The notes beneath the pieces are model-generated. The model was not told where the DNA came from, did no database searches, and saw nothing but the letters and a program-made list of their open reading frames with translations. This document shows, piece by piece, positions 1,992 through 44,300 of a DNA stretch of 48,908 bases. A program made the position numbers and the translations under genes. The stretch is taken from the IMG/VR virus record IMGVR_UViG_2897346870_000004, positions 1 through 48,908 of that record; one strand, given 5' to 3'. The first letter of the stretch is position 1; every line of letters begins with the position of its first letter. Source of the DNA: a virus. Lineage: Duplodnaviria; Heunggongvirae; Uroviricota; Caudoviricetes.

Positions 1992-3044
1992 TCAGGAGCC
2001 GATATATTCTGGTTTCATATCTGTCAGTGTCGTTTTATACGCCTCATATAATTCACCCAGATGTGGCCGGGCAGCATTCAGCGTATTTTCCAGAGCAGTA
2101 AATTTTTGTTCTGCTTCTGGATCACCTGAAGAAGGTAGGTCATTTATCATCTTCTCGATACGGGCAATAGCATTGAGACGGTGATGACGCTGAACCACTT
2201 TTCCTTTAAGTTCCGTATAGAGAGCGCCAAGTGTATTTTTATGATCTTCCACTTCCTGGCGAAGTGCTGTTGTTTCCCCGGTGCTTTGTGCCTGCTCAAT
2301 ACGTTCACGGAAAGCATCGATCCAGTTTTCCCCGGCATCCTGCTCAATAATTGTTGTTTCACGTTCCGCGCGGCAAGCGGAAGTGTTTTTATGTTCCTGA
2401 ACCGGATTAATGATTTTTTCCTGTGGCTCGTCCAGTTCGTCCCTGGTGTACACTCCAAGAATCACTTCGGGGCAATAAAGGCGCGCCCAGCGTTTCAGCG
2501 CTAGATAGGCAAGCTGCTGGCGAGGATCGTCGGCCCATAGCGTTGAGTTACGTGTTCTGGCCTGCGCCAGAAGTAATTCCAGTACGCGTGGTTTACTTTC
2601 GCCGCGTAGTGTTGCCTGGACACGAACACCGATCCCGTTTTCATCGGCCAGCTTCCAGCCAGGTACACGATATTCTTTCCCTTTGTCGCTCTTCCTGATT
2701 TCAAATTTCCCGATAATTTTTTCCCACGGCCCGAACCAGTCATATTCAATACGCCCGGTTAGCGGCCCACGAGTACTGATTACGGCATTAACCAGTTGCG
2801 CTTCATATCCGAGCACACCATTCACAACGAAAGTTTTCTGAGCTACTGCGTAAGGGTTCATTTGCCACTGCATCGCCTGCATGGTGATGGCCATGCAGTC
2901 TGATGGATTTCCCCGGAGGTGTTCCGGTACAGTAGCCATGCCGGAAGCCATTACCTGGGAAAATGTCTGAATTGCAGCCAGGGACTGAGGGCTGAAAACC
3001 GCAACATTAGAGTTAATATTTTCTTGTTGAGTTAATTCGTTCAT
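1992..3044 (-). CDS. Putative single-strand annealing recombinase (partner of RecE-like exonuclease; not K-12 RecT-like)
   Basis: 350-aa ORF with GAGGAAGG RBS, directly downstream of the RecE-like gene in the position occupied by recT/bet; sequence does not match my recollection of RecT or lambda Bet. Confidence 0.5.
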   Translation of the reverse strand: MNELTQQENINSNVAVFSPQSLAAIQTFSQVMASGMATVPEHLRGNPSDCMAITMQAMQWQMNPYAVAQKTFVVNGVLGYEAQLVNAVISTRGPLTGRIEYDWFGPWEKIIGKFEIRKSDKGKEYRVPGWKLADENGIGVRVQATLRGESKPRVLELLLAQARTRNSTLWADDPRQQLAYLALKRWARLYCPEVILGVYTRDELDEPQEKIINPVQEHKNTSACRAERETTIIEQDAGENWIDAFRERIEQAQSTGETTALRQEVEDHKNTLGALYTELKGKVVQRHHRLNAIARIEKMINDLPSSGDPEAEQKFTALENTLNAARPHLGELYEAYKTTLTDMKPEYIGS

Positions 3045-3055
3045 TGTGTCCTTCC

Positions 3056-6000
3056 TCAGATGCTCAGTGCTTCAAGACGACGAAGATCAAAGTCGTTTAA
3101 TTCGTCGGTATAACTTTCGGTAATCGGTGCTGGCCAGTTGTTTGTCTCCAGGGCTTCGTTTATCTGGCGTAGCGTCCGGCGATATTCCTGTCGACCAAGT
3201 TCCAGGAGTTCCTGCGAGGCTTCCACGACTGCCACCCAGTGATAGCCAGCATCTTTGTTGACGAAGATCCAGAAAAATTTGTCCAGGTTTGCCACATCGC
3301 AATACATTGCGGCGCTGAGGTGATAATCACGCTCAATAATTTCACGGTGCAGGCGATCTTTAAGTCGTTCCTGTCGCACATAACCGAGGCTGACTGACTT
3401 CACGTCAGCGCAAATGCTTTCGTATGGCAGCCGGATTTCGATATCAGGACGGACCCTGATTTCCAGCCCGGTTTCTTCATCAAACCCGAAATAGCTGATT
3501 TCAGATTTGCGATCCGGGTGGTTGAGTAGCCTTGCTGCATCGGTATTGTTTTGCAGTGCCGCGTGAATATTTTTTGCCTGTTCATACATCTCCGGACTGA
3601 TAAACGTTTTCCCGGCATTTTCTTCTTGCTGGCGTTTTTGCCAGTCCTCCAGTGTCACCAGTTCCGGGCGAATTTTCCGTGCGATTTCGGTTAATTGCTC
3701 TTTTGTGCCACTGATGTTGTAAGGCAAAGATTTAGCACGTTCTTTTTTTGCCAGTTCTGGGTCTACAGTTTCAATTTGATCCAGAAGCTGCTCCCGTGCT
3801 CCACTGGTTTTCAACAGAGGAGGGAGGCTTGCGTTGTATTCTTTAATACAGGCTTTCATTGCTGATGCTGTGTGTTTTTCCCCCTCAGGAATACGCCGAA
3901 ATTCCACCGGAAGCGAACCGTAAAGGATGCCTGTTTCTTCGGCCCCGGCACTTACAGACAGTGGCTGTATAAGAGTGCTGTTGTAGCTTTCGATCCACTC
4001 TTTCATCTGCTCTGGTGTCATCAGTGCTGGCAGACTGGCATTGTGTTTTTTAATGATGGCGATCAGTTCGCTAGAAGTAGTAACCACATATTCAGGAACC
4101 GGTACCGGAATGGCATATTCATCAGCGAATTTATCCGTTTCCAGAACATAGCTGTGAATGATCCGCCCACGCAGCAGTGCATCACTTTCCTCGTTCGGAA
4201 TAGTTCCGGCAATGTGCCGTCCGTGGTAATACATCAGGCTGATACGGGCATCCTTCAGCATCGTGCTGCTTATTCCGTTGGCGGAGTGATAAACCTCGTT
4301 CGGGAGGTTTTCATAGCGGCCAGGCTCGAAATATGACGGCCACATGATTTCAGTTGCTACAGGAGCTGACGCTTCACCAGTTTCATCACTGCAATCACGA
4401 TGCGGATCGCTGCCAGCATTCTCATTGTGCGGATGTTCAGCGCCTTCCATTTCCACCGGATCTTTTTCCTTAGCTTCAACCTGATTCTCTTCATCGAATG
4501 TTTCCTGGTATGTTGCGTCGCCCGTCACCGCCCCACAGTCAGGGCAGTTATCTCCGCCAGTCTGACCGCAGGCATTGCAGACTATTTCCGGTTCCTGTTG
4601 CACTACTGCCTCAGGTTGTTTCACATCCGGGCTGGTTTTTTCCGTTTCTGGCTGGTTCTGGTACACAGAATCGCGAGTCTGGATCCCCTTAACCCATTTC
4701 GGATCGTTCGGGTCGCTAATTCCGTCAACAAATTCACCACGTGATGCAGCAAGCAATTTATCGGCATCGACAGGATTTTTTGATGGAATGTTTTTCCGGG
4801 CTTCATGGAGTTCTGCCCGCAGTTCCTGATATTTCGCATCAACAGAATTTACCTGTGACTGAGCATCCAGCGGCTGCGTGTCCTGATGATGTTCAGTTGC
4901 GTCCGGTTCCATTGTTTCAGCCTCTCCCTGTTCATCTGCCGTTGTTTCAGATGGTTGCGGTTTTTCTTCATCATCCTGTTTTCCTTCTTCTGTTACACGC
5001 TGCGGCATCGGGGCAGAGGAGCGACCGCAGGCAATATCCACGATTTCCGGATCAGGGTTGGCATGATCGGTTTCAGTCAGTACTTTGTTCAGATATTCAG
5101 TGACGTGCGCGGGGATGACCTCGATCCCAATTGGTGCTTCTTTCACGGACGCAACCACGATGGCGCGTGAATAATCCAGCCCGCCAGGCATGGTGATGAA
5201 TTTGTCGCGGAAAACAGAAAAGGGCGGTTTATTTTCAGCGATAATTTCCTCAATGCGTTTAGCGTGTGCCGGATGAAGGTTATAGATGTCCACGTCCATT
5301 GAACGGGCCAGTACGCCAGTGGCTACATCGCGCGCCAGTGACGTCAGATCGTGGACGAAACCTTCGCCGCGATCGGTGAGGTTCCCGCCGCCAGCATTAG
5401 CACCGGAAGCCGTGCGAGTGATGCGTGAAACACGATTCCCTTTTCGCCATTCTTTTGTCAGAAGACCGCGATCAATGTGTTCGGTATCCAGCCAGGCTGA
5501 AATGAAATTCTTAAATTCATAGGGCTGATGTTTTTTCGTGATAGAGAAAACCCCCTTAATTGCATCAGTCAGGCGGAGCAGGGCGGCATTATCCAGAGTT
5601 GTCGGTTCTGCCATGCCGCGTATGGCCAACAGCAGATTCTGGACATAGCTGTTTTCCTGATCCATCTCAAGAGCAGTAATGTGTTCGCGTTGTTCTCGGG
5701 TGGCATGATGCAGGTATTTCCGATCCCCGGCCGCATAGGTAAAAATGTGCAGAAGACGCTGTGTGAACCGCAAAGTAGATACAGAAACTTCGCAATCCTG
5801 GCAATCCCCGTGAGCGTCTGCCAGTGTGTTTTCTTCCTGCCCTCCCGTCAGTTCTTCGGTTTCCTGAGCATTCTCCTGATGGTGAACGTCGTCTGGCGCT
5901 GCTCCCGATTTTAGTTCCCAGGTCATGGAGTCTTTGCTGAGTTGATAGCGTTCACTCCAGGTAAAATCGATCTCACCTTCAGGGGGCAGGTCATTAACGA

Positions 6001-6178
6001 CAGGAAAATTCGTGGCAACAGCTTTAAAATAGCTGCTCAGTTTTTTACCTGACTTAACGATCAGGTAGTCCAGAGTGGCACAGGTCGATTCAAAATCGTC
6101 GCTTGCCCACAGGACGACGTCAGGTTCACCGGATGATTTTTTCGCTTTCCGTAACGGGAAGAGTGGTTTTGTGCTCAT
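3056..6178 (-). CDS. recE: Exodeoxyribonuclease VIII (RecE-like), 1040 aa
   Basis: N-terminus [46 protein letters not shown] matches recalled RecE; C-terminal region has a RecE/YqaJ-like PD-(D/E)XK pattern (RVRPDIEI ... DVKSV). Confidence 0.8.
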
Positions 6179-11541: not shown

Positions 11542-12114
11542 ATGGAGACTGTTTTTGACGCACTGAAAGCAATGGGGAAAGCTACGTCGGTAGAACTGGC
11601 TGCGCGACTTGATATCAGTCGTGAAGAAGTGCTGAACGAGCTGTGGGAACTGAAAAAGGCTGGCTTCGTTGATAAAAGCGTATACACCTGGCGCGTGGCT
11701 GATAACAACGTTCAGCAGGAACAGCCAGAGCAGGCAGAACTGCCGGAAGAAACCACCACGGCAACAGTCGCAAAAATTTCGGAGTGCGATTTAACTGCGA
11801 CGATTGAACAACGTGGCCCACAAACGGCGGATGAACTGGCTACGTTTTTCGGCATCACATCACGCAAAGTGGCTTCAACGCTGGCAATGGCAATCAGTAA
11901 AGGTCGTCTGATTCGCGTTAATCAGAACGGTAAATTTCGTTACTGCATGCCGGGCGATAATTTACCAGCAGAGCCGAAAGCTGCATCGGTAGCGGAAACT
12001 GATGGTAAAGCCTTTCCTCAGCCAGCCGGTGTTGCGTTACCAGTACAGGAAGCGGCAACACAGGAAGATATTAAAACAGAAACTGTGGCGGACATTGTGC
12101 AGTCGCTGCCATAG
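11542..12114 (+). CDS. ydaW: YdaW-like protein (DUF1627-like), apparently full length
   Basis: Start at ATG 11542 with GGGAGA RBS just after the ydaV stop; [33 protein letters not shown]-like N-terminus. Confidence 0.55.
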
Positions 12115-12318
12115 TTTACTGAAACGCAAGCGGATGACCTGGTTTTACCATCGCTGCATATGGCAAACCGCGAACTGCGTCGGGCGAAAAATCATGTCCA
12201 GAAGTGGGAGCGAGTCTGCGCCGCGCTGCGGGAGCTGAACAAGCACCGGGATATTGTCCGACAGATTGTCGATTCCTCCAGTCGTATTGTGTCGGAAAAG
12301 TGATTGCCGGAGGCGCTT

Positions 12319-12828: not shown

Positions 12829-12942
12829 GCGGAAGTTGCTAAAACGGTTTACCGTGTCCAAAGGAGTCAGGGGCAACAACGCGATATTGCTGACTGAGGT
12901 TTGGATCTAATCCTAGGACATGTCAGGAGCAATGCTAATCTA

Positions 12943-12971
12943 TTCATTAAAGCAGAGTATATGCCTATAAT
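12943..12971 (+). promoter_or_regulatory. Candidate sigma70 promoter (TTCATT, 17-nt spacer, TATAAT)
   Basis: Perfect -10 hexamer with a 17-nt spacer to a weak -35, about 84 bp upstream of the 13055 start. Confidence 0.3.
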
Positions 12972-13054
12972 TTAGAACCTTGCTATGGACATGAAAATGT
13001 GTAACATGCAATAGATCTCTACACACAGCAGGATTCCTACACCAAGGAGTGTTT

Positions 13055-13456
13055 ATGATTAACGAATCCAGTCCTTTCCCAGACAACGAAATTATATCCT
13101 TCTATGACTGTACTGGCATGTCCATTTTTTATCTACATAGTGATGGTGAAAGTTTTTATCACTATGACGGAACCCCACTAGCCTATTTATATAATAATGA
13201 ATATATGGTTTCATATTCAGGTCAGTATTTAGGTTGGCTATATAATGGGAGTATTATAGATTATAAAAATGGGGCTTATGTTTTTTTTACAGCTTATAGT
13301 TCTGGTGGGCCATCGCGACCAAGCCGAAAGTCTCGACCAAGTCGATTATCAAGAAGGAGCAGACCTGCTAAATTAATTCGTAATAGTCGACCGTCACGAC
13401 CTTCAAGACAAACCAGATGGAGCGAGCGAAGCAACATGAGTTTTTTCAGTAGTTAA
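13055..13456 (+). CDS. Hypothetical 133-aa protein: fourfold beta-hairpin-like repeat domain plus Ser/Arg/Pro-rich tail (cassette gene 1)
   Basis: AAGGAG RBS 5 nt before ATG 13055; four repeats of Y-x-x-x-G-x-x-[LIV]-x-[YWF]-[LF] (YDCTGMSIFYL, YDGTPLAYL, YSGQYLGWL, YKNGAYVFF); C-terminal SRPSR repeats; AT-rich. Confidence 0.6.
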   Translation: MINESSPFPDNEIISFYDCTGMSIFYLHSDGESFYHYDGTPLAYLYNNEYMVSYSGQYLGWLYNGSIIDYKNGAYVFFTAYSSGGPSRPSRKSRPSRLSRRSRPAKLIRNSRPSRPSRQTRWSERSNMSFFSS

Positions 13457-13534
13457 ATTCTCGTTGTATTAAAAAATAGATTGATTTGAAAGTTAGCATA
13501 TTTACCTACTATCAAATAATGAAAAGGGTTAAAG

Positions 13535-14950
13535 ATGAGTAATCTTCCTACTACAGTAAATACAACCGCAGTAACCACTGGTGTTGATAATTTCACGACG
13601 TCATTAACTACTTACCTCACCGATTTGAATCTTCCGGCAAACGGCGTTTTAGTCGGCAATGATCAGAGGTACACTGTAATTGATAACTTCCCAAAGGTTA
13701 TTGGTGGTATTGACAGTGCAAGGCTTTCAGATTCGTTATATCTATCAAAGTTTATTGCAGCGTGCGGCGCTGGCCTTTTTGATGCAGCACTAAATTTTTT
13801 ATGGAATGAAACAGTAGTAAATTTGAGATGGAAGGTTTCCCTTAACGATATAGACTATTTTTATGACAGTATTGTCACTGACACAAAAAGAAGAGATAAG
13901 CTTAAAACTGTAGATGATTTAGTTAATATAGAGGAGTGGGAGCTTGTTAAGGGTTGCCACTTAACGGGATTACTTTCGGATATAGGTTTTAAACATCTTG
14001 ATTATATAAGAGATATGAGGAACTGGGCTAGTGCAGCACATCCTAACCAAAGTCAGCTAACAGGATTCATGCTCATCTCATGGCTTGAAACCTGCATCAA
14101 AGAAGTGATTGCGAAAGAACCAGAACCTTCTGCATTACAAATAAAGAGAGTACTATCTAACATCAGAGGCGCTAACTTAGAAGGCGATGACTTAGCCCAT
14201 ATAAAATCTGCGATGGAAAACCTACCTCAAGATGTTGTTGATTCTTTCTTAAGAACTATATTTGGGATGTATACTAATGATAACGCGGCTGTACAGGTTA
14301 AGAATAATATAAAAGGAATTGCAAAAAAATGTTGGGATCTTTCGTCAGAAACTACGAAGTATAGTTGTGGTATAAGATATCAATCTTTTGCAGCTAACGG
14401 AGAGAGAGCTAGGAAAGATGCGGCTAATGAGTTTTTAACTACTGTATCTGGTCTTCCATATCTTCCATCAGACTCTTTGGCTGTTGAAATATCAATCAGA
14501 GTGACAAATTTATACCAAGCCCATTTTGGATGGAATAATTTCCATAATGAACCTGCTCATGCATCCTCTTTGGCAGCATATATCTCCTCTGCTGGGAATG
14601 TCCCTGACTCAGTTCGATTTGAATATGTTAAGACTATAGTTTTGTGTTATTTGGGCAACAGCTATGGAGTGTCTAATATGGCCGTTTCTTACTATGAAGA
14701 AATGATTGGTAAGTTCGGCGAGGCAGAGTTAAAAGAGTTCGTAAAAATAATTTATGATAAAGACGTGATATCTAGGCTTGCAACTCAAACATGTGCTTCT
14801 CGATATAAACATATAGCATCCAATTTTGTTAGCAGAACTACCAATCAAATAACCTCGCAAGCTCTTAATGCGATCATAGCATCGACTGCTCTCCAGTTAC
14901 CGAACCTATCGAAAGCAACGGCCTACGATAAACTTATTCGCTCATACTAA
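13535..14950 (+). CDS. Hypothetical 471-aa protein with HEPN-like R-x6-H motif (candidate abortive-infection effector; cassette gene 2)
   Basis: AAAGGG RBS; co-oriented 78 bp downstream of gene 1; followed by a strong terminator; motif RDMRNWASAAH at residues 159-169; no Walker A; AT-rich. Confidence 0.7.
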   Translation: MSNLPTTVNTTAVTTGVDNFTTSLTTYLTDLNLPANGVLVGNDQRYTVIDNFPKVIGGIDSARLSDSLYLSKFIAACGAGLFDAALNFLWNETVVNLRWKVSLNDIDYFYDSIVTDTKRRDKLKTVDDLVNIEEWELVKGCHLTGLLSDIGFKHLDYIRDMRNWASAAHPNQSQLTGFMLISWLETCIKEVIAKEPEPSALQIKRVLSNIRGANLEGDDLAHIKSAMENLPQDVVDSFLRTIFGMYTNDNAAVQVKNNIKGIAKKCWDLSSETTKYSCGIRYQSFAANGERARKDAANEFLTTVSGLPYLPSDSLAVEISIRVTNLYQAHFGWNNFHNEPAHASSLAAYISSAGNVPDSVRFEYVKTIVLCYLGNSYGVSNMAVSYYEEMIGKFGEAELKEFVKIIYDKDVISRLATQTCASRYKHIASNFVSRTTNQITSQALNAIIASTALQLPNLSKATAYDKLIRSY

Positions 14951-14987
14951 ATACTGTGAGACAAAAACAGGCTTAGATCAGATAACA

Positions 14988-15012
14988 GCCCTCTCTATTC
15001 GAGGGCTTTTTT
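14988..15012 (+). terminator. Rho-independent terminator (GCCCTC stem, 7-nt loop, GAGGGC, TTTTTT)
   Basis: Direct reading, 38 bp after the stop of the 471-aa gene. Confidence 0.65.
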
Positions 15013-15102
15013 GTAGGAATGCTTAATTGAATATCCGCTTTTCGCTCAAAGAGGACTAAAATGTTGGCTTGTTTCTGACTTAGAGCATTTAAGGAAGTGC
15101 TG

Positions 15103-17291: not shown

Positions 17292-17581
17292 TGGTGAATT
17301 TACGTAAAGCGGCTAAAGGCCAGATGTGCCAGATCAGAATCCCTGGCTACTGCAATCACAATCCCGAAACCTCTGTGCTGGCGCATTACAGGCTGGCGGG
17401 GACGTGCGGAACAGCGACAAAACCACACGATATGCAGGCAGCGATTGCCTGTAGCTCATGCCACGATTTAATCGACGGGCGGGTAAAAACCAGCGATTAC
17501 ACCAAAGAAGAATTACGCCTGATGCATGCAGAAGGTGTTTTTCGCACACAAGAAATCTGGAGAAAGGAAGGTTATTTATGA
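17291..17581 (+). CDS. YbcO-like protein (DUF1364, Cys-rich)
   Basis: 96-aa ORF, TAATG-coupled to the upstream gene; Cys motifs CQIRIPGYCNHNPETSVLAH and ACSSCHD. Confidence 0.55.
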   Translation: MVNLRKAAKGQMCQIRIPGYCNHNPETSVLAHYRLAGTCGTATKPHDMQAAIACSSCHDLIDGRVKTSDYTKEELRLMHAEGVFRTQEIWRKEGYL

Positions 17582-18120
17582 TTTACCCAACAAATACAGG
17601 CAAAAGCGGGGAACACCTTCGTCTCACCACGCTGGAAAGTGTCTGGATTCAGGGAAAACTGCGCATGTGGGGGCGCTGGTCGTATATTGGCGGCGGTAAG
17701 ACGGGAAATATGTTTAACCAGTTGCTGGCATCCAAAAAATTGACGAAAACAGCCGTCAATGAAGCCCTGCGCAGGATGAAAAAAGCGGGAATAGAGAAAC
17801 CTGAGCTGGAAGCGTTTTTGCGAGAGATGATCAATGGCAAGCAAAAGACCTGGCTGGCGCATTGTACTGATGCAGAGGCGTTATGTATTGATAGAGTCAT
17901 AAGTGAGGTGCTGGCAGAGCATCCTGGATTGATTAGTGTCCTCCGGCAACGGTATGAAGGACGGGGGATGACTAAGCGCAAAATGGCTGAATTGCTAAAT
18001 GATGCACATCCTGAGTGGTGTTTTAGCACATGCGAAAAGCGAATTGCTAATTGGTTGGCTGTTGCTGAGTATGCCCTATATATTCCCATGCGAGAATCAT
18101 TTGCTCAAAAAATAGCTTGA
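17578..18120 (+). CDS. Putative late-gene antiterminator Q (phage 82-type family)
   Basis: ATGA-coupled start at 17578; LRMWGRWSYIGGG motif resembles Q82-type antiterminators as I recall them; position immediately upstream of the lysis region. Confidence 0.55.
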   Translation: MIYPTNTGKSGEHLRLTTLESVWIQGKLRMWGRWSYIGGGKTGNMFNQLLASKKLTKTAVNEALRRMKKAGIEKPELEAFLREMINGKQKTWLAHCTDAEALCIDRVISEVLAEHPGLISVLRQRYEGRGMTKRKMAELLNDAHPEWCFSTCEKRIANWLAVAEYALYIPMRESFAQKIA

Positions 18121-22273: not shown

Positions 22274-23065
22274 ATGAGCGAGAAATTAAAGATAGTCTAT
22301 CGCCCATTACAAGAATTGTCACCGTATGCGCACAACGCCAGGACGCACAGCCCTGAGCAGGTGGCACAACTGGTAGAAAGTATTAAGCAATTCGGCTGGA
22401 CTAATCCGGTGCTGATTGACGAAAAGGGCGAAATTATTGCGGGTCACGGTCGTGTTATGGCGGCTGAAATGCTCAAAATGGATTCTGTTCCGGTCATTGT
22501 TCTGTCTGGCCTGACGGATGAGCAGAAAAAGGCGTACCGCCTGGCAGATAATCGCCTGCCGATGAATGCTGGCTGGGATGAAGATCTGTTGCGGATGGAG
22601 CTGTCGGACCTAATCAATGCTGATTTTGATGTCTCCCTGACAGGCTTCATCCCGACAGAAATTGATGAACTGTTGACGGATGTTTTGCCCGGTACAGGAA
22701 ATGAGGAGGAGCCGTATACGACGAAAATTGATACGCCTGTTTATGAGCCGTCGGGCGGTAAACCGGATATCAGTGAACTGTACGACGATACGAAAACTCA
22801 GGAGCTGATCAGCCGGATACGTTCGGCGTCCCTTGAGCCTGATATTGAGAAATTCCTCCTGTGTGCGGCAGAACGTCACACGGTGTTTAATTTCAGCAGA
22901 ATTGCGGACTATTACGCTCACGCCCCCGCTGAAATTCAGTGTTTTTTCGAGGAGTCGGCGCTGGTGATCATTGATTATCAGCAGGCTATTGAAAATGGAT
23001 TTGTCCGGATGACGCAGCGCATGGTGGAGATCATGCATGGTGGTGAGGAGGAGGAATATGCGTGA
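22274..23065 (+). CDS. ParB-like nuclease-domain protein
   Basis: N-terminal ParB/Srx-like block LIDEKGEIIAGHGRVMAAEML ... KKAYRLADNRL; C-terminal about 160 aa unassigned. Confidence 0.7.
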   Translation: MSEKLKIVYRPLQELSPYAHNARTHSPEQVAQLVESIKQFGWTNPVLIDEKGEIIAGHGRVMAAEMLKMDSVPVIVLSGLTDEQKKAYRLADNRLPMNAGWDEDLLRMELSDLINADFDVSLTGFIPTEIDELLTDVLPGTGNEEEPYTTKIDTPVYEPSGGKPDISELYDDTKTQELISRIRSASLEPDIEKFLLCAAERHTVFNFSRIADYYAHAPAEIQCFFEESALVIIDYQQAIENGFVRMTQRMVEIMHGGEEEEYA

Positions 23066-23990
23066 TGATTTTTGCGCCTTTATTCTGACTCACGGGCGAC
23101 CAGACAAAGTTCTGACTTACCGGACGTTGCGTCGTGCTGGCTATACCGGGAAAATTTTTATCGTTGTTGATGATGAAGATAAGACACGGCATCAGTACAT
23201 GGCTGAATTTGGTGAACAGGTGCTGGTGTTTTCCAAAGCCGATATCGCCAGTCGTTTTGACGAAGCCGATAATTTCTGTGACCGCCGCTCAATTTTTTAC
23301 GCCCGTAATGCCTGTTTTGACCTGGCAAAACTGGTCGGGTGTAAATACTTCATTCAGCTCGATGATGATTATCACGAGTTCCAGTTTCGGGTGGATCGCA
23401 ACTATGACCAGGCCTATTTTCCGATAAGGAAACTGGATGCGATCCTTTCTGAAATGCTGGCGTACTACGAATCAATACCTGCTCTTTCCATCGCTATGTC
23501 GCAGGGCGGGGATTTTCTTGGTGACAATGGCGGCCATGCTTCGTGGGTGAAACGCAAGGCAATGAACAGCTTTATCTGTTCGGTTGATCGACCGTTCTCA
23601 TTCATGGGGCGCATTAACGAGGATGTGAATACGTACACGAATCTCGGTCGCTGTGGTGAATTGTTTATGACGATCGGTGCTGTCCAGTTAGGGCAGAAAC
23701 AGACGCAGAAAAACAGCGGCGGAATGACCGAGCTGTATCTGGATTCCGGAACCTACGTTAAAAGTTTTTACTCCGTCATGTATGCGCCGTCGTGCGTAAA
23801 AATTTCACTGATGGGTGCCAGCCATAAACGCATTCACCATCAGGTCACCTGGAACAACGCTGCAGTAAAAATCCTTCACGAAAAATACAGGAAGAAGACA
23901 CCCTGCATATCAATGGGGGTGACAAATGATTCCGTATTCGAAAGTCGAGTCTCTGGCAGCGTGCCGGATGACTGCACAACAAATCGCTGA
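23058..23990 (+). CDS. Hypothetical protein (about 310 aa), coupled to the ParB-like gene
   Basis: GAGGAGGAG RBS; start overlaps the upstream stop by 8 nt; acidic IVVDDEDK and QLDDDYHEF segments; function unknown. Confidence 0.5.
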   Translation: MRDDFCAFILTHGRPDKVLTYRTLRRAGYTGKIFIVVDDEDKTRHQYMAEFGEQVLVFSKADIASRFDEADNFCDRRSIFYARNACFDLAKLVGCKYFIQLDDDYHEFQFRVDRNYDQAYFPIRKLDAILSEMLAYYESIPALSIAMSQGGDFLGDNGGHASWVKRKAMNSFICSVDRPFSFMGRINEDVNTYTNLGRCGELFMTIGAVQLGQKQTQKNSGGMTELYLDSGTYVKSFYSVMYAPSCVKISLMGASHKRIHHQVTWNNAAVKILHEKYRKKTPCISMGVTNDSVFESRVSGSVPDDCTTNR

Positions 23991-31211: not shown

Positions 31212-31388
31212 ATGGCCGGATTAACTAAAGAGCAAAGAGCACAGCGTGAAGCCGCACAAAAAACGCAAATTGAGTTAGTGGTTATGGTGACCGATTATCA
31301 GATGTTTCCCGGCGCACCAACTATCGCTAATGTTCATCCTGATGAAGTTGACAACTGGAAGGCTATGGGCTGGAAAACTCAGGAGTAA
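31212..31388 (+). CDS. Hypothetical small protein (58 aa)
   Basis: GGAGGG RBS; MAGLTKEQRAQREAAQKTQIELVVMVTDYQ; below the ORF-track cutoff. Confidence 0.35.
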   Translation: MAGLTKEQRAQREAAQKTQIELVVMVTDYQMFPGAPTIANVHPDEVDNWKAMGWKTQE

Positions 31389-31391
31389 CAC

Positions 31392-31787
31392 ATGATCACT
31401 TACGTGACCTGTGATGACGTTGATAATGCGTTTGGGAACGCCTGGACGAGTGAGAACGCTAAAAATAAAGCTGTTTTAATGGCTAATGCCTGGCTTAATG
31501 GCTTCAACCTGAAAATTAACCCATCCCGTATTCCGGAAGAGGTAAAACTTGCGGGAGCATATGCAGCCAGAATTGCCTCATTCGGTAAGTTGTTTCAGCA
31601 GAAAAATGATTCTGGCGTTGTTATCAGTAAAGCCGTGTCGGCTGACGGGGTCAGTGTATCGAAATCATTTGCTGAGTTGCCAGCAAACAGCACTGTATTG
31701 CTTGAACCCGATTTACAGCTTGCGATAGCACTGCTGAAACCGTACGGACTTAGTCGCTCACAAGTCAGGGTTGTGAGGGGGGGATAA
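31392..31787 (+). CDS. Putative head-tail connector or head completion protein
   Basis: 131-aa ORF in the head-tail joining region; assignment by position only. Confidence 0.4.
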   Translation: MITYVTCDDVDNAFGNAWTSENAKNKAVLMANAWLNGFNLKINPSRIPEEVKLAGAYAARIASFGKLFQQKNDSGVVISKAVSADGVSVSKSFAELPANSTVLLEPDLQLAIALLKPYGLSRSQVRVVRGG

Positions 31788-31981
31788 TGGGGCTTCGTGA
31801 AGAGATTCAGTCAGAGGTTGCCGCTGCTTTTGATGAGGATTTAGCGGACGCCGTGAGTGATTTTTCTGGTTCTTACGTTACGCACCGGCACTGGGATCCT
31901 GTGACGGAAACTGGCGGCGAATCCACGGTGATGCTGCCAACTTACTGATTTAGTGTATGATGGTGTTTTTGAGGTGCTCCA

Positions 31982-32257
31982 GTGGCTTCTGTTTCTATCA
32001 GCTGTCCCTCCTGTTCAGCTACTGACGGGGTGGTGCGTAACGGCAAAAGCACCGCCGGACATCAGCGCTATCTCTGCTCTCACTGCCGTAAAACATGGCA
32101 ACTGCAGTTCACTTACACCGCTTCTCAACCCGGTACGCACCAGAAAATCATTGATATGGCCATGAATGGCGTTGGATGCCGGGCAACAGCCCGCATTATG
32201 GGCGTTGGCCTCAACACGATTTTACGTCACTTAAAAAACTCAGGCCGCAGTCGGTAA
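31982..32257 (+). CDS. insA: IS1 InsA
   Basis: [43 protein letters not shown] matches recalled InsA. Confidence 0.9.
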
Positions 32258-32679
32258 CCTCGCGCATACAGCCGGGCAGTGACGTCATCGTCTGCGCGGA
32301 AATGGACGAACAGTGGGGCTATGTCGGGGCTAAATCGCGCCAGCGCTGGCTGTTTTACGCGTATGACAGTCTCCGGAAGACGGTTGTTGCGCACGTATTC
32401 GGTGAACGCACTATGGCGACGCTGGGGCGTCTTATGAGCCTGCTGTCACCCTTTGACGTGGTGATATGGATGACGGATGGCTGGCCGCTGTATGAATCCC
32501 GCCTGAAGGGAAAGCTGCACGTAATCAGCAAGCGATATACGCAGCGAATTGAGCGGCATAACCTAAATCTGAGGCAGCACCTGGCACGGCTGGGACGGAA
32601 GTCGCTGTCGTTCTCAAAATCGGTGGAGCTGCATGACAAAGTCATCGGGCATTATCTGAACATAAAACACTATCAATAA
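32176..32679 (+). CDS. insB: IS1 InsB reading frame (expressed as InsAB' by -1 frameshift at the A6C run 32233-32239)
   Basis: Matches recalled InsB; A6C slippery run in the insA/insB overlap. Confidence 0.85.
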
Positions 32680-32946
32680 GTTGGAGTCATTACCGAATCC
32701 ACCGCAATCTATACCGGGCGAGGCGTGTTGACACGTTATAAGCTGGGCAGAATTGATGGGATTAATATTTTGCATGGTGACCTTAAATTAACCGCTCTGG
32801 TATGCGAGGTTACGGATAAACCCGCTGTCGACCATATTATTGAGATTTATGATCCTGTATTAAGGCAGTTACAACGATACGAGGTAATTACAGCGAGTGT
32901 AGATCCTTCCGCATCAGTTTACTCTATCCAGTTAAGGAGAGCGTAA

Positions 32947-33327
32947 ATGGCAAAGGCATGGGATATAGAACCGTCAATATTTGCCGGGATGATTGAGGAA
33001 GATGTGGGGCTGAAAATTCGCTACATCGCTATGCAGATTCTTACTGCTATTGATATTGCTGCTCCGGTTGATACCGGACGTTTCAGAAATAACAACCTGG
33101 TGTCGTTACAGCATCCCGATTTTGGTATATCTGATAACGTGGATCCGAACGGTACGATTGCGGTTCAGCGTGGGATCGGGGTTATTTCGAAAGCTGCAAA
33201 TTACGGAGTTATTTATATCCAGAATAACCTTCCTTATGCAGAGGCTCTTGAAAACGGTCATTCACAACAAGCGCCAACTGGCGTGTATGCCAACGCTTTT
33301 CATGGTGTTTTACAGGCTTACAAATGA
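32947..33327 (+). CDS. Putative tail completion or head-tail adaptor protein
   Basis: 126-aa ORF between the head-tail joining gene and the tail tube gene; assignment by position. Confidence 0.45.
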   Translation: MAKAWDIEPSIFAGMIEEDVGLKIRYIAMQILTAIDIAAPVDTGRFRNNNLVSLQHPDFGISDNVDPNGTIAVQRGIGVISKAANYGVIYIQNNLPYAEALENGHSQQAPTGVYANAFHGVLQAYK

Positions 33328-33716
33328 CGTTTACTGAAATCAGAAATACGGTTATTTCCAGAATGACGGCACAGACGATTATTGATGGAAAAGACGTATT
33401 GTATCCGAACGCGCCAACGTTCGATCCTTCCGGTAAGTTAATCTGGGCGCGGTTAAGTAATATTCCCGGGCAGGCTGGAGTTAATGAAATTGGCGCGGGG
33501 CCGATTGTTTATCGCACGGGGATAATCATTATTCAGTTATTTGTCCCCGCAGGTTCTGGTTCAAAACTCATTACTGAGACAGCCGATAAATTGCGGGAAC
33601 TGTTTGAGTTTCAGGATGACGATCGTCTCAGTTACCAGGCTGTTTCCTCAATAGCCGTTGGCGAAAAGAATGGCTGGTTCCAGCTTAATCTTCAAATTCC
33701 ATATCGCGCGCTCTAG
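33324..33716 (+). CDS. Putative tail terminator or completion protein
   Basis: 130-aa ORF, translationally coupled, directly upstream of the major tail gene. Confidence 0.45.
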   Translation: MTFTEIRNTVISRMTAQTIIDGKDVLYPNAPTFDPSGKLIWARLSNIPGQAGVNEIGAGPIVYRTGIIIIQLFVPAGSGSKLITETADKLRELFEFQDDDRLSYQAVSSIAVGEKNGWFQLNLQIPYRAL

Positions 33717-33742: not shown

Positions 33743-34705
33743 GTGAGTTCAGGTGCAAAGGTTATCTCGGCATTTATCCGGGAGACGGTTGCAGGCACTA
33801 CGCCAGCAAGTGGTGACTGGAGTTTATTAAAACGCACAAGCTGGGGAGTAAAACCCACCCAGAATAAAGGCGAAAATAATGAGATTGGTGGCTCCCGGAT
33901 GGCTCAGGGGGCGACGCCTGGCACTGTGGATGTCGGCGGTGATGTTGGTACCAAATTTCGCTGGGGTCAACATGATGATTTTCTTGCATCCTGTTTCGGC
34001 GCGGAATGGTCAGGCGATTCTCTGACAATGGGGAATGAGCGAATAACATTTTCTCTGGCGACCTATGCGTCCGATGTCGGAATTGCCTCTGTCGTCAGAG
34101 GAGCGCAGGTTGGCTCATGGAAAATGCAGATCCCTAACGACGGCGATATTACAGCGACCGTAACCTTTGCCGGACTGGACTGGGAATCAAAGGCCGATGA
34201 TACGAATTTTATCAAAGGCGAACCTGTGGATAGTGCAGGAAAGCTACGTTATTCGTTTAAGGAGGTTTCAGCAGTAAGCCTGAATGGTGTTGCCGGAGGT
34301 AACGGTTTTTGTATCGACAGTTTTGATATTCAGTTCGATAACAAACTCCAGACACAGCGTTGTATCGGGACTGGCTCGCCTTATGCAGGAGCAAATATTC
34401 CGACTACTTTTACACCGTCCGGTACGGTGACGCTTTCATGGTCTAAAGCCGCGTGGGAAATCTGGAGTAAAACACTGACTGGAGAAACAGTTCCGTTCAG
34501 CTTCACGCTTTCGAATGGAGAGGGGGCATACACTTTCAGTTTCCCGAAGGTTCAGGTGTCAGGTGAATGGCCTGATGGGGGTAATAGCGACATTATCCAG
34601 GTTCAATTGAGCATTACCGCAGCAGATGAAGCACCTACGATAACCAGAAAAAAAAATTCCCCGGCTGCCGTGATCGCAAAAGCCAGTGCTGAGGCGATTA
34701 GTTGA
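33743..34705 (+). CDS. Major tail (tube) protein, GTG start
   Basis: AGGAGG RBS 5 nt before GTG; 320-aa protein directly upstream of the G/GT chaperone genes. Confidence 0.6.
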   Translation: MSSGAKVISAFIRETVAGTTPASGDWSLLKRTSWGVKPTQNKGENNEIGGSRMAQGATPGTVDVGGDVGTKFRWGQHDDFLASCFGAEWSGDSLTMGNERITFSLATYASDVGIASVVRGAQVGSWKMQIPNDGDITATVTFAGLDWESKADDTNFIKGEPVDSAGKLRYSFKEVSAVSLNGVAGGNGFCIDSFDIQFDNKLQTQRCIGTGSPYAGANIPTTFTPSGTVTLSWSKAAWEIWSKTLTGETVPFSFTLSNGEGAYTFSFPKVQVSGEWPDGGNSDIIQVQLSITAADEAPTITRKKNSPAAVIAKASAEAIS

Positions 34706-41305: not shown

Positions 41306-44300
41306 ATGGGTAAAGGCAGCAGTAAGGGGCATACCCCGCGCGAAGCGAAGGACAACCTGAAGTCCACGCAGATGCTGAGCGTGATAGACGCCATCAGTGA
41401 AGGGCCGATTGAAGGTCCGGTGGACGGATTAAAAAGTGTGCTGCTGAACAGTACGCCAGTGCTGGACAGTGAGGGGAATACCAATATCTCTGGTGTCACG
41501 GTGGTTTTCCGGGCAGGTGAGCAGGAGCAGACACCGCCGGAGGGATTTGAATCCTCCGGCTCCGAGACGGTGCTGGGTACGGAAGTGAAGTACGACACGC
41601 CGATTACCCGGACCATCACGTCTGCAAACATCGACCGTCTGCGCTTTACCTTCGGTGTGCAGGCACTGGTGGAAACCACCTCAAAGGGGGACCGGAATCC
41701 GTCGGAAGTCCGCCTGCTGGTTCAGATACAGCGTAACGGTGGCTGGGTGACGGAAAAAGACATCACCATTAAAGGCAAAACCACCTCACAGTATCTGGCA
41801 TCGGTGGTGGTGGATAACCTGCCGCCGCGCCCGTTTAATATCCGGATGCGCAGGATGACACCGGACAGCACCACAGACCAGCTGCAGAACAAAACGCTCT
41901 GGTCGTCATACACCGAAATCATCGATGTGAAACAGTGCTACCCGAACACGGCACTGGTCGGTGTGCAGGTGGACTCGGAGCAGTTCGGCAGCCAGCAGGT
42001 GAGCCGTAATTATCATCTTCGCGGGCGCATTCTGCAGGTGCCGTCGAACTATAACCCGCAGACGCGGCAATACAGCGGTATCTGGGATGGAACGTTAAAA
42101 CCGGCATACAGCAACAACATGGCCTGGTGTCTGTGGGATATGCTGACCCATCCGCGCTACGGCATGGGAAAACGTCTTGGTGCGGCGGATGTGGATAAAT
42201 GGGCGCTGTATGTCATCGGCCAGTACTGCGACCAGTCAGTGCCGGACGGCTTTGGCGGCACGGAGCCGCGCATCACCTGTAATGCGTACCTGACCACACA
42301 GCGCAAGGCGTGGGATGTGCTCAGTGATTTCTGCTCGGCGATGCGCTGTATGCCGGTATGGAACGGGCAGACGCTGACGTTCGTGCAGGACCGACAGTCG
42401 GATAAGGTGTGGACCTATAACCGCAGTAATGTGGTGATGCCGGATGATGGCGCGCCGTTCCGCTACAGCTTCAGCGCCCTGAAGGACCGCCATAATGCCG
42501 TTGAGGTGAACTGGATTGACCCGGACAACGGCTGGGAGACGGCGACAGAGCTTGTTGAAGATACGCAGGCCATTGCCCGTTACGGTCGTAATGTCACGAA
42601 GATGGATGCCTTTGGCTGTACCAGCCGGGGGCAGGCACACCGCGCCGGGCTGTGGCTGATTAAAACGGAACTGCTGGAGACGCAGACCGTGGATTTCAGC
42701 GTGGGTGCTGAAGGGCTTCGCCATGTACCGGGCGATGTCATTGAAATCTGCGATGATGACTATGCCGGTATCAGCACCGGTGGTCGCGTGCTGGCGGTGA
42801 ACAGCCAGACCCGGACGCTGACGCTCGACCGTGAAATCACGCTGCCATCCTCCGGTACCACGCTGATAAGCCTGGTTGACGGAAGTGGTAATCCGGTCAG
42901 CGTGGAGGTTCAGTCCGTCACCGACGGACTTAAGGTGAAAGTGAACCGGGTTCCTGACGGCGTTGCAGAATACAGTGTGTGGGGGCTGAAGCTGCCGACG
43001 CTGCGCCAGCGCCTGTTCCGCTGTGTGAGTATCCGTGAGAACGATGACGGCACGTATGCCATCACTGCCGTGCAGCATGTACCGGAAAAAGAAGCCATCG
43101 TGGATAACGGGGCGCACTTTGACGGCGACCAGAGCGGCACGGTGAATGGTGTCACGCCGCCAGCGGTGCAGCACCTGACCGCAGAAGTCACTGCAAACAG
43201 CGGGGAATATCAGGTGCTGGCGCGCTGGGATACGCCGAAGGTGGTGAAGGGTGTGAGCTTTATGCTTCGCCTGACCGTGGCAGCGGATGACGGCAGTGAG
43301 CGGCTGGTCAGCACGGCCCGGACGACGGAAACCACATACCGCTTCACGCAACTGGCGCTGGGGCGGTACACGCTGACAGTCCGGGCGGTAAATGCGTGGG
43401 GACAGCAGGGCGATCCGGCGTCGGTATCGTTCCGGATTGCCGCACCGGTAGCACCGTCGCGGATTGAGCTGACGCCGGGGTATTTTCAGATAACCGCCAC
43501 GCCGCATCTTGCCGTTTATGACCCGACGGTACAGTTTGAGTTCTGGTTCTCGGAAAAGCGGATTGCGGATATCAGGCAGGTTGAAACCACAGCCCGCTAT
43601 CTTGGCACGGCGCTGTACTGGATAGCTGCCAGTATCAATATCAAACCGGGCCATGATTATTATTTTTACATCCGCAGTGTGAACACCGTTGGCAAATCGG
43701 CATTTGTGGAGGCTGTTGGCCAGCCGAGTGATGATGCATCCGGCTATCTGGATTTTTTCAAAGGCGAGATAGGGAAAAGCCATCTGGCTCAGGAGCTGTG
43801 GACGCAGATTGATAACGGTCAGCTTGCGCCTGACCTGGCTGAAATCAGGACGTCCATTACGGATGTCAGCAATGAAATCACGCAGACCGTCAATAAGAAA
43901 CTGGAAGACCAGAGTGCGGCAATTCAGCAGATACAGAAGGTTCAGGTTGATACAAATAATAACCTGAACAGCATGTGGGCTGTGAAGCTGCAGCAGATGC
44001 AGGACGGACGCCTTTATATCGCGGGTATTGGTGCCGGTATTGAGAACACCCCTGACGGCATGCAGAGTCAGGTGCTGCTGGCGGCGGACAGGATTGCGAT
44101 GGTTAATCCTGCGAATGGCAACACAAAGCCGATGTTTGTTGGTCAGGGCGATCAGATATTCATGAACGAAGTGTTCCTGAAATATCTGACGGCTCCCACC
44201 ATTACCAGCGGCGGTAATCCTCCGGCATTTTCCCTGACACCGGACGGGCGGCTGACGGCGAAAAATGCCGATATCAGCGGTAACGTGAATGCGAACTCCG

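Follow-up and report, generated by a model that had tools for sequence, protein, structure and literature searches.

The window analysed here, a stretch of 48,908 nucleotides (positions 1 to 48,908 of IMG/VR record IMGVR_UViG_2897346870_000004), is a full-length lambdoid prophage of the Rac family. It carries the Rac backbone genes int, xisR, rcbA, ralR, recT, recE, racC, kilR, sieB, racR, ydaS/T/U/V and trkG in Rac synteny together with genes for a Q-like antiterminator (17578-18120), a lysis cassette, terminase, portal, capsid, neck and a lambda-like tail. When the genes of the prophage in E275a, which lacks the insertion described below, were compared with the window one by one using tblastn, most of them found a counterpart at 89-100% identity. 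The attachment sites of the prophage are located outside the window. Within the neck module, a complete copy of IS1 resides between two short open reading frames, and its features and those of the neighbouring genes are compiled in Table 1.

Table 1. Coordinates of the insertion element, the interrupted gene and the adjacent neck and tail genes in the window
Feature	Position	Strand	Evidence
Ad1 head-tail adaptor, intact; stop overlaps Hc1 start (TAATG)	31392..31787	+	phrog_493, E 2e-48
5' fragment of Hc1 head-closure gene, codons 1-46 plus 2 nt	31787..31926	+	
Left target-site duplication copy, GAATCCAC	31919..31926	.	
Complete IS1, 768 bp; orientation that of the phage late operon	31927..32694	+	ends and Pfam
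IRL of IS1, GGTGATGCTGCCAACTTACTGAT	31927..31949	+	script check
insA (31982-32257) and insB' frame (to 32679)	31982..32679	+	ORFs, Pfam
IRR of IS1; reverse complement GGTAATGACTCCAACTTATTGAT; 3' end of the element written ...ATCAATAAGTTGGAGTCATTACC / ...GTTGGAGTCATTACC	32672..32694	+	
Right target-site duplication copy, GAATCCAC	32695..32702	.	
3' fragment of Hc1 gene, last nt of codon 47 to stop	32703..32946	+	
Ne1/tail-completion gene (HK97 gp10 type), intact	32947..33327	+	phrog_169, E 2.8e-55
Tail terminator, intact	33324..33716	+	profile match, E 2.8e-41
Tail tube, intact	33743..34705	+	

The terminal arms of the element match at 18 of 23 positions (script check) and thus form the imperfect terminal inverted repeats of some 23-30 bp, GGTGATG... 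and ...CATTACC, by which IS1 is recognized. InsA comprises 91 amino acids with the Pfam domains Zn_ribbon_InsA (1.3e-21) and HTH_Tnp_IS1 (4.7e-31), while the insB' frame matches DDE_Tnp_IS1 (E 5.9e-78). Both are connected in the manner of IS1 by an A6C motif at 32233-32239, where a -1 frameshift leads to a 232-residue InsAB' transposase. Only two of the 768 nucleotides differ from a RefSeq copy annotated as 'IS1A family', and the element looks functional. A promoter-like site at 31934-31961, within and beside IRL, is consistent with IS1's own insA promoter. An outward-facing promoter able to drive downstream genes was not detected in a promoter and terminator scan around the element.

The 8-mer GAATCCAC abuts both ends of IS1, and identity of an 8-mer at two fixed positions is expected by chance in about 1 of 65,536 cases. 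As is to be expected for a target duplication by IS1, it occurs as a single copy in the empty sites of FDAARGOS_1268, E275a and SPF_0923. The boundary and repeat check thereby bore out the earlier note, which had described a canonical 768-bp IS1 and a perfect 8-bp repeat from the letters alone. For IS1, a target duplication of 9 bp is more usual than one of 8 bp. The earlier note had added that the repeat extends to 9 bp when the final C is counted as target, and the arithmetic is right: the 9-mer CGAATCCAC is repeated only when C32694, the canonical last base of IS1, is assigned to the target. This assignment is less parsimonious and was rejected, as it would need a 767-bp IS1 without its canonical terminal C. 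A full 768-bp IS1 with an 8-bp duplication is the simpler reading. Published descriptions give a length of 768 bp for IS1 and target duplications of either 8 or 9 bp (PMC12428005).

At its left end the interrupted gene runs on into IS1 as far as a stop codon at 31946-31948, resulting in a chimera of 53 amino acids, 46 of which are native and seven encoded by the element. The 3' fragment is devoid of a start of its own except for an internal GTG at 32725. Accordingly, the ORF list of the interrupted window shows a 53-aa and a 73-aa frame where one gene had been. When 31787-31926 is joined to 32703-32946, an in-frame sequence of 384 nt is obtained that encodes 127 amino acids plus stop. For comparison with other genomes we used a repaired query, i.e. 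window positions 31300-33400 minus IS1 and one repeat copy (1,325 bp). It is matched exactly (1,325/1,325) in E. coli FDAARGOS_1268, in which the repaired ORF is annotated as a single 384-bp CDS, WP_000524259.1, precisely the intact gene of about 127 codons that the earlier note had predicted upon removal of IS1 and one repeat. The gene is likewise uninterrupted in ON032529.1 (Salmonella phage SPF_0923), with 99.9% identity over 8.4 kb spanning the site. In a megablast search with positions 31300-33400, the flanks were contiguous in many of 5,426 complete E. coli genomes, at least 12 records being 100.0% identical. The comparison with IS1-free relatives that had been proposed at the outset thus yields uninterrupted sites in E. 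coli genomes and in a phage record, and the identical empty sites carry one gene rather than two genes with an intergenic gap. IS1 splits one Hc1 gene at codon 47.

The module without IS is present in 754 of the 5,426 complete E. coli genomes (~14%), with a median of one place per carrier genome. At least 80% of it lies in one place in 722 of these 754 genomes (~96%), and among the rows listed nearly all are single uninterrupted 1,325-bp matches. Homologues of the repaired protein are single proteins of about 127 residues in 88 phage records, with identities down to ~40% in phages of Klebsiella, Erwinia, Pseudomonas and Acinetobacter, and more than 100 protein clusters also hold full-length homologues of about 127 residues.

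Several lines of evidence bear on the function of the split gene. The repaired protein matches phrog_161, 'head closure Hc1', with an E value of 1.4e-28 over residues 1-127 and profile positions 1-120 of 120. The gene order Ad1-Hc1-Ne1-terminator-tube in the window is that of a type 1 neck, with the split gene at the place of Hc1. The Ne1 gene possesses its own AAGGAG ribosome-binding site and is 100% identical to that of the relative. The disrupted gene is, judged by profile and gene order, an Hc1 head-closure (stopper) gene. The classical 'head-tail joining protein' is gpFII of phage lambda. With gpFII as the lambda member of the Hc1 head-closure/stopper class, the label 'head-tail joining' originally given to the gene proves right in kind. 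Lopes and co-workers give Ad1-Hc1-Ne1-Tc1 as the canonical order of type 1 necks and list SPP1 gp16 and lambda gpFII as Hc1 proteins (Lopes et al., 2014, PMC4362835). A Pfam scan of the repaired protein matched no family, and PDB sequence searches with the single sequence and with a 59-sequence profile returned chance hits only (E above 1).

An AlphaFold model of a 98%-identical homologue, of low confidence overall (mean pLDDT 54.7), has a helix at its N-terminus as well as beta strands, and is disordered across residues 56-85. With this model as query, the top four Foldseek hits were neck chains. The model exhibits a beta-barrel/beta-sandwich core with a long flexible loop like solved stoppers, a resemblance that in view of the low confidence is supportive only. 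Residues 56-85 (around 32728-32817 in the window) are the worst-modelled part, with pLDDT values of 29-47. It is also in this stretch that the invariant residues of the family lie closest together: Y59, R63, D65, G66, N68, H71, G72, D73, K75, L76, T77, L79 and E82. In SPP1, the loop of gp16 folds only upon assembly and plugs the channel (PMC9701221). Low model confidence combined with strong conservation fits a loop that may become ordered only in the assembled stopper ring, reminiscent of that of gp16.

Public annotation of this protein is misleading. RefSeq names it 'hypothetical protein' or, wrongly, 'glutamate 5-kinase'. Homologues are widely called 'glutamate 5-kinase' in NCBI, UniRef and phage records and 'pam3 tube protein' in some phage records. 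Genuine glutamate 5-kinase (ProB) has about three times the length of this protein, and the label looks like a propagated misannotation.

The insertion itself is rare among sequenced genomes. It was found in none of the 5,426 complete E. coli genomes, and an exact scan of the GTDB species representatives gave zero matches to the left junction. The only two records among the 5,426 genomes that reach at least 80% query coverage, PSJ-14 and EC529, were rejected as carriers because they represent a different IS1 event combined with a deletion. There, IS1 (4223-4990 of the compared PSJ-14 segment) is located just after the Ne1 gene and the downstream tail genes are lost. In strain 23CRST009 the HK97 gp10-family (Ne1) gene is split by IS1203, and TUM9803 features an IS3-family insertion in the same neck module. 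The 53-aa chimeric product is present in four contigs, one from NCBI and three from Logan. The NCBI contig, CATKIO010000002.1 of GCA_949766015.1 (960 kb), spans both junctions with a single mismatch in 20,162 bp. The difference is at position 41491 in the gpJ tail-tip gene, where the window has T and GCA_949766015.1 has C. Given one difference in 20,162 bp, both belong to the same clone, although the window apparently does not derive from that very record. The Logan contigs, SRR17027113 (seen in six samples), SRR17027105 and SRR26255011, are identical to the window and end just inside IS1. The occurrence of the same junction in GCA_949766015.1 and several SRA runs demonstrates that the insertion is genuine and inherited within a clone.

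The earlier note had considered the insertion recent on account of the perfect repeats, and this assessment now has broader support: the flanks differ from the empty site at 0 of 1,325 positions, the IS1 is intact, and carriers are limited to near-identical contigs, with none among the 5,426 genomes. Taken together, these observations indicate an event that is recent on an evolutionary scale, yet dates back far enough for several sequenced samples to have it in common.

The remaining late genes appear to be in good order, in agreement with the original statement that the lysis and tail genes look intact. Checked against the IS-free prophage of E275a, the following are full length and free of stops at 84-100% identity: holin, endolysin, Rz, terS, terL, portal, minor head protein, scaffold-like DUF6651 protein, capsid, Ad1, Ne1, terminator, tube, chaperones, tape measure and the M/L/K/I homologues. 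J, Lom and tail fibre are represented by long open frames in the window. Since the other late genes are full length without stops, Hc1 is, as far as reading frames tell, the only interrupted morphogenesis gene of the prophage. Two further lesions are apparent elsewhere in comparison with E275a. A premature stop at 1553-1555 cuts RcbA at residue 62 of 69, and a premature TAG at 12112-12114 in a DUF1627 early gene (11542-12303) cuts its product at residue 190 of 253. In view of these stops, IS1 may not be the prophage's only lesion. Phage records of the 'vB_EcoS-...' type were not accepted as proof of a viable phage, as their source locates them in genomes of clinical isolates and does not present them as demonstrated virions (bioRxiv 10.1101/2022.06.29.498070).

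Some other regions of the prophage deserve mention. The recT/recE genes (1992-6178, minus strand) constitute a divergent allele, with a RecT of 350 and a RecE of 1,040 residues as compared to 269 and 866 residues in E275a. RecE combines an Exonuc_VIII N-terminus with a DUF3799 PDDEXK C-terminal domain and shares 68% identity with the E275a protein over the N-terminal 734 residues. Between trkG and the small terminase gene (22274-23990), a ParB_N-domain protein and a TET-associated glycosyltransferase (TAGT, E 3.8e-35) are encoded. The former additionally has a hit to a PADLOC type II methyltransferase model, in the N-terminal part of that model, and both genes, which may constitute a DNA-modification module, are conserved in IS-free relatives. 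A variable island (12833-15034) between the replication genes and the Q region contains genes for a '4-fold beta flower' protein (13049-13456) and a 471-aa ORF (13535-14950) for which no match was found in Pfam or PADLOC. In E275a, the same slot is occupied by genes for TetR, adenosine deaminase, NTP pyrophosphatase and a SIR2 protein. The island looks like a cargo or defence hotspot.

IS1 insertions are polar, and this one may lower expression of the downstream neck and tail genes. The Q-like antiterminator and the ribosome-binding site of Ne1 itself would limit such an effect, and because the prophage encodes a Q-type antiterminator, polarity is probably partial. We are highly confident that an IS1 copy that looks functional inserted itself at codon 47 of the Hc1 gene of a full-length Rac-family prophage, thereby duplicating GAATCCAC and disrupting the stopper gene. 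The gene would now yield just a 53-aa N-terminal stub without most of the beta-sandwich and without the most conserved loop. Stoppers attach to the adaptor ring, seal the portal channel so that the DNA stays inside, and provide the surface on which the tail docks, and each stopper contacts its own adaptor and terminator in a specific manner (PMC9701221). Upon induction, the prophage should still excise, replicate, package its DNA, build tails and lyse the cell. A hexameric stopper ring would be unable to form on the adaptor, and the filled heads would be expected to leak DNA and/or fail to dock tails, such that few or no infectious particles arise. From the known role of stoppers and the disruption of Hc1 we infer that the prophage is probably non-infectious, a conclusion that we regard as sound. 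A second, compatible Hc1 gene of another prophage could complement the defect in trans, and on rare occasions a precise excision event between the repeats of 8 bp could bring back the intact gene.

It is conceivable, albeit rather unlikely, that a genuine insertion is not what decides the phenotype, either because the prophage was already non-viable or because a resident prophage supplies the stopper in trans. The premature stops in rcbA and the DUF1627 gene would be in line with the first possibility. As to the second, E. coli genomes often hold several lambdoid prophages, and Asadulghani and co-workers reportedly found (PLoS Pathog, 2009) that defective lambdoid prophages of O157 Sakai are still packaged and transferred through interactions between prophages. 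On the other hand, all recognized replication, lysis, packaging, head, neck and tail genes match those of the IS-free relative over their full length and contain no stops, which speaks against prior decay. The specific contacts that stoppers establish with their own adaptor and terminator imply that only a closely related neck module could complement, and the median for this module in the 754 carrier genomes is one place.

Selected domestication is a considerably less probable explanation. In this scenario, the clone would retain the prophage cargo (trkG, recET, lom, superinfection exclusion), and perhaps also the ability to shed free tails or heads, while it no longer makes transmissible phage. 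In its favour are the fact that several sampled genomes have inherited the insertion while otherwise hardly differing, and the independent IS events in the same neck module of the other strains named above. However, about 96% of the carriers keep most of the module in one place, the listed rows being single uninterrupted matches, and a handful of IS hits is what is expected under neutral decay; moreover, all carriers found may be one clone. We see the recurrent IS hits in the neck module as an illustration of ordinary prophage decay. A more specific version, to which we assign a marginally smaller chance yet, holds that the stopper knockout is a fixed and possibly selected state in which lysis of the induced lysogen sets free DNA-filled heads without tails as well as unattached flexible tails of the lambda type. 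If this were true, the knockout would mark the start of a path to an F-type tailocin or to a 'caged' prophage that carries cargo but is not transmitted, and the IS hits in the neck modules of other strains would be convergent instances of it.

Two further objections concern the insertion as such and carry hardly any probability. Multicopy IS1 often breaks or mis-joins short-read assemblies and three Logan contigs stop just within it, but a repeat copy mis-placed in a draft assembly would not bring with it a precise 8-bp target duplication, the signature of real transposition, nor would it recur at the left junction of four independent contigs from different projects, one of which covers both junctions over 960 kb of contig with one mismatch in 20 kb. 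Equally negligible is the idea that the 53-aa and 73-aa ORFs are separate small genes with IS1 in a harmless gap between them, because the identical empty site is a continuous 384-nt ORF annotated as one CDS, the HMM match extends across residues 1-127, even at 40% identity homologues remain single proteins of ~127 residues, and the last seven codons of the 53-aa ORF are contributed by IS1.

Disruption of the Hc1 gene by IS1 thus stays our preferred reading, and it has some practical implications. The IS1 and the two short ORFs termed 'hypothetical' should be re-annotated as one disrupted Hc1 pseudogene. A function can be assigned to a gene that is carried by ~14% of complete E. coli genomes and is there termed 'hypothetical' and often 'glutamate 5-kinase'. 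Predictors of prophage completeness would likely call this prophage intact, and it should be scored as probably non-infectious despite its complete-looking size and gene content. The IS1 junction offers a convenient marker of this lineage.

As a whole, the case is a textbook example of an IS1 insertion: the phage protein family and the prophage family that it affects are both known, and no new biology is entailed. The solved stoppers, i.e. SPP1 gp16, lambda gpFII, P1 gp7, phiXa gp6 and the Bxb1 stopper, share only 5-15% identity with the window protein. In the stopper gp7 of phage P1, a helix at the N-terminus is combined with a beta-sandwich and a long loop (PMC12810830), the same layout as seen in the AlphaFold model of the homologue. 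With IS1 of the IS1A/IS1E type from Escherichia coli, the window copy agrees in length, canonical inverted repeats and insA/insB' organization with the A6C frameshift; there is no substantial difference, and the duplication is 8 bp. The cryptic Rac prophage of E. coli K-12 shares the Rac backbone but has lost its structural genes, whereas the window copy keeps every one of them, with just one interrupted. Lambdoid prophages inactivated by insertion sequences include those hit by IS629 in O157:H7 Sakai, and the prophage described here has likewise been struck by an insertion sequence, in a morphogenesis gene.
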